This document shows, in pieces, positions 30 to 28,774 of a stretch of DNA of 64,000 bases. Source of the stretch: Felixounavirus LF82P2; sequence record OZ035741.1. One strand, given 5' to 3'. The stretch's first letter is position 1, and every line of letters starts with the position of its first letter. The notes beneath the pieces were generated by a model that was given only the letters and a program-made list of their open reading frames with translations, was not told the DNA's origin and did not search any database. The position numbers were made by a program, and so were the translations under genes.

Positions 30-1631
30 ATGGACTTAAATGCTGTTAAGCAGAAGCGAGTGGAAGATGTTAGGAAAGTCCTAGCTGGAGAGTTGGGGCT
101 TTCTGATGAAGTAAAAGAAATTATTAAATCATTCGGTAAAGACCCCTCTAAATTCCTTCCAACTCAAATTCTGACTTTATTAAGATACACACCAGACCAA
201 GTTCGCCTTATCTTTAAATTGATGACTGATAAGAACTATGTAGCCCCTCAGCCGGGTTCTCAAGAGGTCTTTTTAAATACTAATGCTGACTTGGTTCTCT
301 ATGGTGGTGCTGCTGGTGCTGGTAAGACTGCCGCATTGTTAATGGACTCTTTAAGATTTATTGAAGACCCTAACTATAATGCTGTATATTTCCGTCGAAA
401 TACAACACAGTTACAAGGTGGTTTATGGCCTGCTGCAAAGAAACTATTTGGTAAGTTTGGTGGGATTCCTCACGAGCAGAAAATGACTATCACATTCCCT
501 TCTGGGGCAACTATCAAGTTTACCTACCTAGAACTTGAAAAGCACGCTGAAGGTCATCAGGGTATTGAATACTCAGCTATTTACTTTGACGAAGGTACAC
601 ACTTCTCTGCTTCACAGATTTCATACCTACAAACCCGTCTACGTTCTGGTGCTGAAGGCGATTCATACATGAAGATTTCCATGAACCCAGACAGAGACCA
701 CTTTATTTACGATTGGGTAGAGCCATTCTTAGATGAAGAAGGCTACCCAGACCCTGAAAAATGTGGTCGTATTCGTTGGTATGTAATGAACGATGGCGTG
801 ATGGTTTCTGATTGGGAGAGAGACAAGATTCTTGAAATGTTCCCCCTTGAGATTCCTCAAACATACACCTTTATTTCTGGTACGATTGATGATAACCCAA
901 TCCTTGACTTCTTAGAGCCTAAGTACCGTGGTAAGTTGGAAAACAACACTCCTGTAAACGTTGCAAGACTTCGTTTCGGTAACTGGAAGGCTCGTGCAGA
1001 AGGTTCAAACTATTGGCAAAGACAATGGTGTGAAATTGTTGATTCACTCCCAGAAGATGTATTTGATGTTAGAGCATGGGACTTAGCAGCAACTTTACCA
1101 TCTGAGATTAACCCTAATCCAGACTGGACAGCAGGTGTTAAGATGGGTAAATCTAAAAAAGACGGTTGCTATTATATCATTGATGTAGTAAGATTTAGAG
1201 ATAGACCCTCTGGAGTCGAAACACAAATTAATTTGACTGCTGAAAGTGACGGTAAGCGAACTGGTATTTTTATCCCTCAAGACCCAGGCGCTGCTGGTAA
1301 ATCCTACGCAACATCCCTCATCAGGAAACTTGCCGAGAAAGGTTATCGAGCAAGAGCCAAACCAACAAATAAAGATAAAGTTACCCGCTTTGCGGGATTT
1401 TCTGCTGCTTCTGAAGCTGGACTTGTAAAAGTCTTGAGAGGTAGTTGGAATGAAGCTTACTTTCAAGAACTTGAAGGCTTTTGTGGTGACGGTAAAACTA
1501 AAGATGACCAAGTGGATGCTACCAGTGATGCTTTCAACAGTCTTAACGAAGTTAAATTATTCAAGCCACCATCAATGGGTGCTCACACAGATTTAGTGAG
1601 AGGAAACCCATATGAGGGGCTTAGACGTTGA
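30..1631 (+). CDS. terminase large subunit
   Basis: Walker A LYGGAAGAGKT near residue 95; sits immediately upstream of portal; ORF-track start at 15 is TTG, first ATG at 30 is preceded by GGAGG at 19-23. Confidence 0.85.
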   Translation: MDLNAVKQKRVEDVRKVLAGELGLSDEVKEIIKSFGKDPSKFLPTQILTLLRYTPDQVRLIFKLMTDKNYVAPQPGSQEVFLNTNADLVLYGGAAGAGKTAALLMDSLRFIEDPNYNAVYFRRNTTQLQGGLWPAAKKLFGKFGGIPHEQKMTITFPSGATIKFTYLELEKHAEGHQGIEYSAIYFDEGTHFSASQISYLQTRLRSGAEGDSYMKISMNPDRDHFIYDWVEPFLDEEGYPDPEKCGRIRWYVMNDGVMVSDWERDKILEMFPLEIPQTYTFISGTIDDNPILDFLEPKYRGKLENNTPVNVARLRFGNWKARAEGSNYWQRQWCEIVDSLPEDVFDVRAWDLAATLPSEINPNPDWTAGVKMGKSKKDGCYYIIDVVRFRDRPSGVETQINLTAESDGKRTGIFIPQDPGAAGKSYATSLIRKLAEKGYRARAKPTNKDKVTRFAGFSAASEAGLVKVLRGSWNEAYFQELEGFCGDGKTKDDQVDATSDAFNSLNEVKLFKPPSMGAHTDLVRGNPYEGLRR

Positions 1632-26191: not shown

Positions 26192-26491
26192 TTAATCTGC
26201 CAACCTTAAATTAAAATTAACACCAAATTTTTCACATACTTCCAACATATACTCAAGGGAGACGTTACCAGTGAGATGGATTATGTTGGATACACGAGCC
26301 TGAGAGATACCACAAATTTTAGCAACTTGCTCTTGAGAAAGACCTCTGGATTTAATCTCTCTCTTAAAACGATGTGCAACGAAATCTCTCATTTCATCTA
26401 CATCCATTGGACAAATATAACTCTCCATTTCAGCCTCTCTATCAGCCTCCCAATCATCTTGTGGAGCATAAGGGTCAAAAATCTCATTCAT
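26192..26491 (-). CDS. HTH (XRE/Cro-like) DNA-binding protein
   Basis: helix-turn-helix LSQEQVAKICGISQARVSNIIH; track start at 26521 is TTG, first ATG at 26491 (MNEIF...) overlaps the stop of the upstream ORF by 8 nt. Confidence 0.6.
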   Translation of the reverse strand: MNEIFDPYAPQDDWEADREAEMESYICPMDVDEMRDFVAHRFKREIKSRGLSQEQVAKICGISQARVSNIIHLTGNVSLEYMLEVCEKFGVNFNLRLAD

Positions 26492-26696
26492 CTTTCTTCT
26501 TCCGTTTGCGTGAAGTGTCAATCAATGAATCTATGTTTGTAGCCCTAACCTTTTCACGTTCATCGTTAAGATAATCGTCAAGAGCCTTTTCAATCTGTGA
26601 ATCATCTTGACAGATGACTGTAAAGACTGTAAATCCGTCTGTATCGTCAATTATCTTACCATAACCGCTTCTGGGATGTAACTTTTTAAGAGCCAT
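26484..26696 (-). CDS. small protein with basic C-terminal tail, coupled to HTH gene
   Basis: 70 aa, C-terminus SRKRKKKDE; stop overlaps the HTH gene start. Confidence 0.4.
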   Translation of the reverse strand: MALKKLHPRSGYGKIIDDTDGFTVFTVICQDDSQIEKALDDYLNDEREKVRATNIDSLIDTSRKRKKKDE

Positions 26697-26697
26697 A

Positions 26698-27081
26698 TCA
26701 AATACCTGTGCAGCTTCTGTTTTCTAAGAAATACTCAACACCATACATAGCTTTTTGCATCAAATCTTCTTTAAACTGGATACGGTGGTTGAGCATAGTT
26801 TGTACATCAATATCGTCATGGTGTTTATCTTTAATATTTGCAGATTGCAGGAAATACTCTGCAAGAACACGATATTGATAGTCAGTTACCTTATCAGTCA
26901 TCTCTGTCAAAGACTCTTCAGAGATTGGTTTAAGTAGCTCACCTTTAGATAGAGCAACACCTTTAACAATCTGGCAAGTGTCTTCTGGGACACCTGATAA
27001 GTCCACATTGGGAAGTTCTGTTGCATTGACTGGTAAATTCATTGCCATAACCATTGCAGCAGCTAATAAAATCTTTTTCAT
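26698..27081 (-). CDS. secreted/periplasmic protein with Sec signal peptide
   Basis: N-terminus MKKILLAAAMVMAMNLPVNA then TE; RBS GAGG 6 nt upstream of ATG at 27081. Confidence 0.5.
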   Translation of the reverse strand: MKKILLAAAMVMAMNLPVNATELPNVDLSGVPEDTCQIVKGVALSKGELLKPISEESLTEMTDKVTDYQYRVLAEYFLQSANIKDKHHDDIDVQTMLNHRIQFKEDLMQKAMYGVEYFLENRSCTGI

Positions 27082-27125
27082 AATGACCTCAAAGTTATAT
27101 TAAATTTTGTATTACGTTGAGTATA

Positions 27126-27171
27126 AAAATAAGCTATAACACCTGACTTGTCAACAGATTTTATAGCTTAT
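27126..27171 (-). promoter_or_regulatory. putative promoter (-35 TTGACA on minus strand) flanked by 10-bp inverted repeat
   Basis: minus-strand TTGACA at 27149-27154, weak -10 TATTTT at 27126-27131; ATAAGCTATA (27129-27138) and TATAGCTTAT (27162-27171) form a perfect inverted repeat. Confidence 0.3.
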
Positions 27172-27189
27172 TTGGCAGATTTTTTATAA

Positions 27190-27430
27190 GGCTACTGCCA
27201 TCCTTCCATACCTTACCTTACCACACCTAACCATACCTAACCAAACTACACCATACAATACCTTGTTAAAAGACCCTTTTAAAGACATTTTAAAAAGGTA
27301 AGTCTCATTTTAATGTAGCTGAGACTAACTACCCTTACCTAACCTTACATCACCTTACAAAGCCAAACCTCACAATACCGAACCATACCTAGCATCACTT
27401 AAAAACCCTCTTAAAAGACTCTTAAATGAT
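27190..27430. repeat. G-depleted (C/A-rich) degenerate tandem repeat region, two ~115-bp units
   Basis: + strand 27199-27264 contains no G (CCTTACC / CCTAACC-type heptamers); second unit 27318-27400 has 3 G; each unit ends with TTAAAAG(A)C-type motifs; noncoding. Confidence 0.5.
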
Positions 27431-27485
27431 GCTGGTGAGTACCCGTTGGTTTATGCTGCTCAGTATACTCACCAAATTTTCTATG

Positions 27486-27674
27486 TCAACAACTTTCTAA
27501 TAAAGTTTTATGAAGATTTTGCTTAACGACCCGCCTCACATGCCTGTGTTCTTTCTTAATAAAGAGTGACCTCTTCTTGTCAGAGCGCCTATTCTTGTAA
27601 GTATTACTAGGATACTTATCATGAACCGGACAACAGCTACCCGGATTTGTAAACTTGATAATCTCTCTTTTCAC
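27486..27674 (-). CDS. small basic protein
   Basis: 62 aa, Arg/Lys-rich, immediately downstream of ligase. Confidence 0.35.
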   Translation of the reverse strand: MKREIIKFTNPGSCCPVHDKYPSNTYKNRRSDKKRSLFIKKEHRHVRRVVKQNLHKTLLESC

Positions 27675-28774
27675 TATTCATAATCCCTAATAACTAGCCC
27701 AACAGGGAACTGTAAAGAACCCTTACGAGTCATCTTCTGGAACTGAACCGTTAAAGGCTTCCCGATAAACTCTTCAGGATGCTCAGCAAGATACTGTTTC
27801 TTCTCGTGTGTAGTTTTCCATGAAACATCTACAAAGACGTTAGGAAGAGTCTCTACAACGAACTTACCATGACCACGCTTATCGGTCTTTACACCAGTCA
27901 CTTTAAACTCTTCAGTGTGCATCTTCTTGTGCTTAATCAAGAAGTATGAACGGTGACAACACTCATAGAAGGAGTCTTCAGAGATTGAACGGTACATTGC
28001 ACCTTCAAACTTAGCTTCAACCCACTTATCATGAGCTTCATCAAACTCTTCCCAAGAATTTACACGGATAGTCTGTACAGGAACAACTCTACAGGTATCC
28101 CCAAGCTCAACAATAGGTGAGTTATCAATAACTTCACGACGCTCAGGCCAAGATTTTGAATTGTCACAGATATCATACCAGTAGAATTTAAGAAGGTGAC
28201 GGTCTGGATTGTCAGCATTCTTAATCATAGATACAATATCTTCTAAGTCCCAACCATGAGCATAAATCTCTCCGTCAAAGTCTTCAACTTGCGGATGTAA
28301 TTTAAGCAACAAAAGCAAATCTGGGATTAGTTCTGTTGGAACGTTGTAAACAGTATTCTCACGAGAATAAGCTGTGAAACTGACTGCATCAGCATCTCTT
28401 GAAATTCTACAACGGACACCATCAAGTTTTGGTTGAGCATCAGCAGGGAACTTCAGATACTTTGCATGACTAACCTTTGCAGCATCATGAGCAAGCTGTA
28501 CACCTACCTTCTCAGTATTCTGTGCAGACTCTTTTGTGTAAGCATAACCTTTGCGGTCAACTTGCTTTTTATACTTAGCAGCAACTTCAAAGAGGGCTTG
28601 CTGTTCAGCGTTACGCTCATTCTTTTTACCGATGTTTTTAGGCTCTGCTGTATACTCTTCAAACATCATCTTGCCATTTTCTTTACCGTAGGTTGTAATA
28701 ACTTTGTCACCTACAGCAACGCATGACCAGACGTTGAAGGAACCGTCTTTATTTTGTTTGTACAGAATTGTCAT
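27674..28774 (-). CDS. ATP-dependent DNA ligase
   Basis: adenylation motif I KLDGVR (PKLDGVRCRI); 366 aa, typical of compact phage ligases. Confidence 0.75.
   Translation of the reverse strand: MTILYKQNKDGSFNVWSCVAVGDKVITTYGKENGKMMFEEYTAEPKNIGKKNERNAEQQALFEVAAKYKKQVDRKGYAYTKESAQNTEKVGVQLAHDAAKVSHAKYLKFPADAQPKLDGVRCRISRDADAVSFTAYSRENTVYNVPTELIPDLLLLLKLHPQVEDFDGEIYAHGWDLEDIVSMIKNADNPDRHLLKFYWYDICDNSKSWPERREVIDNSPIVELGDTCRVVPVQTIRVNSWEEFDEAHDKWVEAKFEGAMYRSISEDSFYECCHRSYFLIKHKKMHTEEFKVTGVKTDKRGHGKFVVETLPNVFVDVSWKTTHEKKQYLAEHPEEFIGKPLTVQFQKMTRKGSLQFPVGLVIRDYE

Follow-up and report, generated by a model that had tools for sequence, protein, structure and literature searches.

What does a 404-nt gap between genes, lying beside the DNA ligase gene of a Felix O1-like myophage (Felixounavirus), encode? 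The DNA analysed here, called the window, is a stretch of 64,000 nt of this phage (64 kb), and about 20 kb of the phage's genome lies outside it. The gap (27082-27485) stands between the DNA ligase side (ligase gene, 27674-28774, minus strand, Pfam DNA_ligase_A_M, followed by a 62-aa ORF between ligase and gap) and a gene for a 127-aa hypothetical protein (26698-27081, minus strand). As the initial annotation had stated, it is the largest noncoding stretch, being the largest internal stretch of the window without an ORF of at least 60 aa, and a tRNA scan of the window likewise returned none. An 801-nt probe over the region matched 230 phage records, nearly all of them Escherichia or Salmonella Felixounaviruses. 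A search of 26500-28000 against Rfam 15 at E ≤ 10 gave only sub-threshold noise, with best matches of 14-21 bits against thresholds of 35-54 and E > 3. The element is mentioned in neither the Felix O1 nor the UAB_Phi87 genome paper, and literature searches found no Felixounavirus transcriptome.

The initial annotation had described the + strand of the gap as G-depleted DNA built from heptamers, an observation that was confirmed in part. The G-free + strand run is 67 nt long (27198-27264) and is the longest in the window, TTAAAAGAC-like motifs flank each unit, and the hairpin corresponds to an inverted repeat with 9-nt arms (27433-27441 and 27466-27474). The period and the meaning had to be revised. 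Tandem Repeats Finder gave periods of 5, 10, 15, 20 and 25 in the gap, and together with the minus-strand register this indicated a true period of 5 nt rather than 7. The second unit (27318-27400), said to hold only 3 G, contains 6. The chance estimate for the G-free run was overstated, because the + strand is generally G-poor here. The second-longest + strand G-free run (57 nt, 26200-26256) is located within the 3' part of a minus-strand HTH regulator gene, and since it falls in coding sequence, composition alone is a weaker signal than had been estimated.

On the minus strand, two arrays of 13 in-register NNGGT units each were identified (27200-27264 and 27327-27391), and when the window was shuffled 50 times, no NNGGT run was longer than 7 units. 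Relatives were sampled from IMG/VR via the 127-aa gene (23 contigs) and from GenBank (two records), and their upstream region was aligned in transcribed orientation. Over 24 relatives the flanks were about 99% identical, while the tracts differed at NN and kept GGY. Among 540 units from relatives, positions 3-5 were G (0.83), G (0.91) and T (0.85) or C (0.08), and positions 1-2 (NN) were near-random, accepting any base. Indels in the tracts were 5-nt steps, with 8 to 18 units per array and 1 to 5 arrays per relative. The alignment of relatives showed not conserved heptamers but a GGY kept every 5 nt with NN free. Moreover, relatives carry C at NN of the transcribed strand, for example TCAGGTCAGGT, so that G depletion is not a conserved property and the G-free strand of the window is incidental. 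The emphasis on heptamers and G depletion was an artefact of reading the non-transcribed strand of one genome.

The protein partner of such arrays was identified from their genomic neighbourhood. A scan of IMG/VR with (GGTNN)6GGT matched at least 120 loci, plain microsatellites among them; 48 of the 120 matches listed were complex, high-entropy arrays, and many of these were composed of several arrays, the blocks being separated by short conserved punctuation. When all ORFs within 3.5 kb of the complex arrays were clustered, one family of about 200 aa was found beside the array in 37 of the 48 complex loci listed; its gene was on the GGT strand in nearly all cases, and its end usually lay a short way upstream of the first array. 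This family, phrog_4652, has no annotated function and no Pfam domain, and it also occurs in some Felix-like contigs. A profile of 34 of its members matched a single PDB entry, 36pp, 'SUSP1 Vipr protein' (E = 1e-80). In addition, the Felixounavirus member P0009 is about 97% identical to the 36pp chain, and its AlphaFold model (pLDDT 94.6) is closest to Csm3/Cas7 RAMP subunits (TM ~0.5). The phrog_4652 protein is Vipr.

[quoted passage not shown] The NN bases pair with double-stranded DNA by a '1-nt skip rule', and binding silences transcription; the main target of SUSP1-clade guides is a satellite that parasitises the phage, some satellites possess vrRNAs of their own, and some vrRNAs aim at other VIPR systems (10.64898/2026.04.26.720920). 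Vipr forms a right-handed filament with one protomer per repeat on a vrRNA with 12 repeats, in which the GGY bases are flipped into Vipr and an R-loop triplex is formed on the target (10.64898/2026.04.26.720927). The system is known only from preprints of 2026, and its discovery began from the protein (10.64898/2026.04.26.720920, 10.64898/2026.04.26.720927).

The window locus is a guide-only locus of this already known system. The gap very probably encodes two vrRNA genes of type II VIPR of the SUSP1/Felixounavirus clade, and the identity of the two elements as vrRNA genes is held with high confidence. In phage wV8, whose Vipr is about 98% identical to P0009, the order is ligase, promoter P1, vrRNA, vrRNA, vipr, vap1, vrRNA, vrRNA and the 127-aa gene, and each of the two intergenic regions of wV8 that bear vrRNAs can be aligned with the window gap, so that homology is found together with synteny to experimentally characterised loci. 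The genomic slot and the promoter are the same as in Felixounaviruses with a Vipr about 97% identical to that of SUSP1. The number of guides differs, with two in the window compared with four in wV8 and five in some relatives.

Both repeat tracts have the form expected of SUSP1-clade type II vrRNAs, with 12 YNNGG repeats per RNA (within the range of 9-16), conserved GGY and hypervariable NN. The vrRNA1 tract (27332..27391, minus strand, NNGGY register) has the NN bases TA AT TC AT GA TT TT AA GA AA TA AA. Its GGY is canonical in 8/12 units, and the non-canonical units, counted as 3 to 4 of 12, read TGT or GGG, with similar degeneracy in vipr-positive phages. The vrRNA2 tract (27205..27264, minus strand), which is the + strand G-free run, has the NN bases AA AT AT GT TT TA AT TA GT AA AA AT, and canonical GGN was counted in 10/12 units by eye and in 9/11 in trimmed scoring. 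The vrRNA2 tract is identical in two vipr-positive relatives (L017 and L025). A CRISPR array, with identical direct repeats of 23-50 nt and unique spacers of similar length, was not found, because there are only two units, what is conserved in them is the tail and leader, and the variable part is a 5-nt repeat. The earlier statement that no CRISPR-like regularity explains the gap nevertheless missed the nature of the element, which is read here as a VIPR guide RNA, VIPR being a RAMP system related to CRISPR.

Each tract is followed by a tail of 38 nt, in line with the tail of about 38 nt with hairpin and pseudoknot in SUSP1-clade vrRNAs and with the invariable 3' tail of about 40 nt that defines vrRNAs. 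The vrRNA1 tail is of type alpha (27297..27334, minus strand, GGGTAGTTAGTCTCAGCTACATTAAAATGAGACTTACC) and folds as an H-type pseudoknot, with a stem pairing 27329-27332 with 27315-27318 and a hairpin pairing 27322-27326 with 27301-27305. The vrRNA2 tail, of type gamma (27170..27207, minus strand, GGAAGGATGGCAGTAGCCTTATAAAAAATCTGCCAAAT), has the same pseudoknot, with 27202-27205 paired to 27188-27191 in the stem and 27195-27199 to 27174-27178 in the hairpin. The structure was derived from an ungapped alignment of 12 distinct tails (the two of the window, the third type of wV8 and satellite tails) and not from the figure in the preprint. In this alignment 99.1% of cells were paired and compensatory changes were observed at 8/9 pairs; none of 500 shuffles was as good, and sliding the partner by 1-3 columns lowered the value to 28-43%. 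The stem covaries, with AAGG:CCTT in gamma and GTAG:CTAC and GTGG:CCAC in other tail types, and the hairpin covaries too.

A near-consensus sigma-70 type promoter, P1 (27462..27489, minus strand; TTGACA, 16-nt spacer, TATACT; 11/12 consensus matches), is kept in the vipr-positive wV8 and in vipr-negative relatives. By its sequence, P1 would drive transcription into the vrRNA region from a start near 27455. The inverted repeat TGGTGAGTA / TACTCACCA (27433..27474, 9/9 complementary, 24 nt between the arms) overlaps the P1 -10 box and is conserved in vipr-positive and vipr-negative phages. Because its 5' arm contains the -10 hexamer, a P1 transcript would not include the whole hairpin, and the repeat may serve as an operator, which could be bound by the nearby HTH protein (26192-26521) or by Vap1.

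Before repeat tract 1 lies leader A (27392..27432, minus strand), a conserved imperfect palindrome, GCATCATTTAAGAGTCTTTTAAGAGGGTTTTTAAGTGATGC, and before repeat tract 2 lies the homologous leader B (27265..27296, minus strand, TTTTTAAAATGTCTTTAAAAGGGTCTTTTAAC). The leaders are 32-41 nt long and are predicted to form a long RNA hairpin whose 3' arm reaches into the first pentamers. The leader motif, tested as a possible phage promoter, was found nowhere else in the window and is confined to this locus. The leaders might be a processing site, perhaps for an RNase III-like enzyme, that sets the vrRNA 5' end. Downstream, an AT-rich hairpin followed by a T run (27120..27173, minus strand) is a possible terminator of the vrRNA transcript. 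Its sequence is invariant in 24/24 relatives; a simple terminator scan detected no terminator, as the hairpin has too few G-C pairs to pass it. In the loop of this hairpin lies a further promoter sequence, P2 (27126-27154, minus strand; TTGACA, 17-nt spacer, TATTTT), from which the 127-aa gene, with its start at 27081, would be transcribed.

Together these features suggest how the locus may work. Host RNA polymerase would start at P1 on the minus strand, and the transcript would give rise to two RNAs of about 95 nt (computed 95-96), each with 12 YNNGG pentamers and a 38-nt pseudoknotted tail. In relatives that carry the system, according to the preprints, a Cas7-like Vipr protomer would occupy each pentamer to build a helical filament, GGY would be flipped into the protein, NN would pair with double-stranded DNA with every third base skipped, and the bound target would be transcriptionally silenced. 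By computation, vrRNA2 appears to target a chromosomal satellite of E. coli, one with tail genes in common with Felix-like phages, where its guide fits a promoter region.

The satellite match was judged against a criterion of at least 80% NN match to a natural DNA target under the 1-nt skip rule. Nineteen E. coli and Salmonella satellite loci were recovered via a Dit-like tail protein that they have in common with the phage. As a positive control, guides of vipr-positive relatives matched the satellites, one of them at 26/28 positions in the satellite tape-measure gene. At one site among the 19 satellite loci, vrRNA2 matched 20/22 NN positions (91%; loci L153-L157, 4069-4101), and none of 300 shuffled guides was as good. 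[quoted passage not shown] One of the two window guides accordingly appears to fit a satellite target by the 1-nt skip rule, as SUSP1-clade guides do, and the satellite belongs to the target class reported for the SUSP1/Felixounavirus clade. Among the satellite loci, vrRNA1 had no match better than the null, its best one being equal to that of the shuffles. Its 9-NN pattern gave at least 120 hits in GTDB genomes, read as chance matches in taxa that are AT-rich and unrelated; over the full length the best of them reached 22/24. The exact 1-nt-skip patterns of both guides had no match in IMG/VR, no self-targets with up to 3 mismatches were present in the window, and a BLAST search of 5,426 E. 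coli genomes with the gap gave no match.

Several satellites carry vrRNAs themselves. In ten loci (L152, L158-L166) one vrRNA each was seen, with 9-15 repeats, a beta-like pseudoknot tail and no vipr, lying roughly 2.6-3.2 kb inside the left end, with the tail genes on the other strand. Genes in the satellites run from a resolvase through small genes, the tape measure and the Dit-like protein to a serine recombinase; the E. coli satellites are integrated near yciI/yciA, those of Salmonella near yccJ and a wrbA-like (FMN_red/Flavodoxin) gene. Like the window locus, these vrRNAs are guide-only and must borrow Vipr from another element, and their tails fit the same pseudoknot. They differ in residing in small integrated satellites, whereas the window belongs to a full-size lytic myophage of the helper type, and in their tail subtype, beta-like as opposed to the alpha and gamma tails of the window.

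In contrast to the SUSP1-clade VIPR system, the window has neither vipr nor vap1 in cis. Neither tblastn nor the family HMM detected vipr in the 64 kb, and a weak tblastn match of a phrog_4652 member (window 739-999) was antisense to the terminase gene and was rejected as spurious. For vap1, tblastn of the window with the 147-aa wV8 protein gave a best E value of 0.65. In the closest relative of full length, the final 26 kb likewise showed neither gene. The two components of a complete type II locus beyond its guides, a RAMP vipr of about 195 aa and an adjoining vap1, are thus lacking from the 64 kb analysed. About half of the Felix-like genomes are in this state: vipr was present in 14/26 Felix-like loci and absent from 12/26, the window's included, and 118 Felix-like GenBank records contained vipr, compared with 230 that share the locus. 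Felix O1 is apparently among the Felixounaviruses without vipr.

Because no vipr is present in the 64-kb window, its guides are orphans and could act only if Vipr were supplied in trans, which might come, for example, from a co-infecting vipr-positive Felixounavirus. The origin of this state is suggested by DR_4 of wV8, an annotated 58-bp direct repeat on each side of vipr-vap1 that comprises the alpha tail together with leader B. If its two copies recombined, what remained would be P1, leader A, an array, the alpha tail, leader B, an array and the gamma tail, and the window locus looks like the product of such a deletion in a wV8-like ancestor. The orphan arrays show no visible decay, the canonical GGY fraction being 0.76 in vipr-negative arrays compared with 0.78 in vipr-positive ones.

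The explanations that dispense with a guide RNA can be weighed against the same data. The gap might function as DNA, as an iteron array or replication origin or as a packaging or recombination site, and its place within a replication-gene cluster beside the ligase gene, its strand-asymmetric composition and its AT-rich flanks would suit such a role. It is nevertheless very improbable. An iteron-type origin would hold several conserved copies of one 17-22-bp binding sequence, and these were not found: the repeat unit measures 5 nt, and at two positions in every five the sequence is free to change, both within a genome and from one genome to another, even between genomes whose flanks are about 99% identical. 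The number of units (8 to 18) and of arrays (1 to 5) also varies, arrays of this type recur beside a RAMP RNA-binding protein in unrelated phages, and the covariation of the tails supports single-stranded folding. Equally improbable is a role of structure or composition alone, as two-tetrad G-quadruplexes, an R-loop, an antisense Rho-utilisation site or a TRAP-like ring array. G-quadruplexes could arise from a (GGNNN)n sequence, an RNA of the + strand would be rich in C and poor in G, and a triplet with a 2-nt spacer is the binding geometry of TRAP. Indeed, the TRAP sites of the Bacillus trp leader RNA also have a conserved triplet, a free 2-nt spacer, about 11 repeats and one protein subunit per 5-nt unit; they differ in having (G/U)AG where vrRNAs have GGY, in a closed 11-mer ring in place of a helical filament, and in spacers that are inert, whereas those of vrRNAs carry targeting information. 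Moreover, GG is followed by a conserved Y, relatives have C among their NN bases, a + strand promoter upstream was looked for and none was found, and the identified partner protein with its solved mechanism supersedes these readings. Among the candidates dropped once the adjacent family was recognised as Vipr were the TRAP-like site, G-quadruplexes, an R-loop origin and an antisense rut, as well as a primase-site array, a Shine-Dalgarno or CsrA sponge and PAM-rich decoy DNA. Of the three roles that the initial annotation had proposed, then, only that of a structured noncoding RNA stands, in the form of two minus-strand guide RNAs with covariation-supported pseudoknots in their tails and a sigma-70 promoter upstream.

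If the elements are vrRNA genes, what remains to be weighed is whether they still have a use. The chance that the window guides are still useful in trans is put just below even, and that they are functionally dead, a recent relic left by deletion of vipr-vap1, is a tentative reading of much the same weight; trans use and relic are about equally likely. A relic agrees with the lack of vipr and vap1 in the window, with an architecture as expected from DR_4 recombination in a wV8-like ancestor, with the identity of vrRNA2 to a guide of vipr-positive relatives, which suggests recent descent, and with the lone, rather degenerate array of some vipr-negative relatives (5/8 canonical units in L002 and 5/9 in L005). 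Dead guides would persist because too little time has passed and because their 3' part overlaps the promoter of the next gene. Yet P1 and at least one array are kept in 11/11 vipr-negative relatives examined, the GGY content is equal in the two groups, and related vipr-negative array pairs differ mostly at NN (28 vs 8, in a test biased by array detection). Furthermore, satellites carry vrRNAs without vipr, so that guide-only loci relying on a borrowed effector have a precedent. A third possibility, that the orphan vrRNAs are decoys which soak up a competitor's Vipr or load it with their own guides, blunting or redirecting its VIPR, is considered improbable. It resembles RNA anti-CRISPRs built of solitary CRISPR repeats, and it would explain the retention of a strong promoter, intact tails and intact GGY motifs; vrRNAs that target other VIPR systems have been reported (10.64898/2026.04.26.720920), and co-infection is plausible because about half of the Felix-like genomes (118 vs 230 records) carry vipr. 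But two guides make a small sponge, and a pure decoy would have no need of a sensible target such as vrRNA2 has. Orphan CRISPR arrays and solitary repeat units likewise are guide or guide-mimic RNA genes without effector genes and can act in trans or as decoys, whereas the window has no repeat-spacer structure, its guide information is non-contiguous, in two of every five bases, and vrRNAs work with just one RAMP protein, which assembles into a filament.

A broader proposal extends trans use from the window to its relatives. Guide-only vrRNA loci in about half of the Felixounaviruses, those without vipr, may be kept by selection as trans-acting parasites or saboteurs, although we regard this as rather unlikely. 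During co-infection, a guide-only phage would load the Vipr of a vipr-positive relative with its own guides. If this were true, the vipr-less phage would gain free protection against satellites or would divert the effector of a competitor. As a separate observation, an orphan guide of a vipr-negative relative (L007 2180) matched the satellite tape-measure gene (L151 8619) at 24/28 NN positions, at the site matched 26/28 by the guide of the vipr-positive phage.

Since VIPR was discovered from its protein, guide-only loci are invisible to that approach. A classic phage lineage carries intact-looking vrRNA genes with a promoter and without vipr, in about half of Felix O1-like genomes. What becomes testable is whether vrRNAs can work with Vipr supplied in trans, whether a guide-only locus cheats, serves as a decoy or is debris, and how frequently the vipr-vap1 cassette is lost via its own flanking repeats. 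For annotation, the rule that follows is that (NNGGY) in at least 9 copies followed by this tail is a vrRNA gene and not a 'repeat region'. Public records annotate parts of these vrRNA genes merely as 'repeat_region' (MN850564.1 42917-42966, L001 2817-2866; EU877232.1 DR_4, L147 2759-2816 and 4152-4209), and the vipr gene of wV8 appears in its public record as 'hypothetical protein 95'.

Two further observations concern the array-bearing contigs of IMG/VR. In unrelated contigs, 5-20 vrRNA-like blocks were found in tandem with very short conserved punctuation, for example in L123 (3226-4392, GGCAGTT punctuation) and L045 (2215-3404, AAGGAATGGTTTAATGAATTTAAT punctuation), and also in L051, L034, L035, L138, L116 and L130; they probably represent further types of VIPR, whose arrays are staggered or packed densely. 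In addition, a second recurrent neighbour of the arrays is a protein of about 160 aa, phrog_15946, with the motif FEWND..AGE.YR.QQAR (L026 3257-3742; L055 7855-8337; L123 4419-4928; also in L051, L084 and L140), which is a candidate Vap-type accessory protein.
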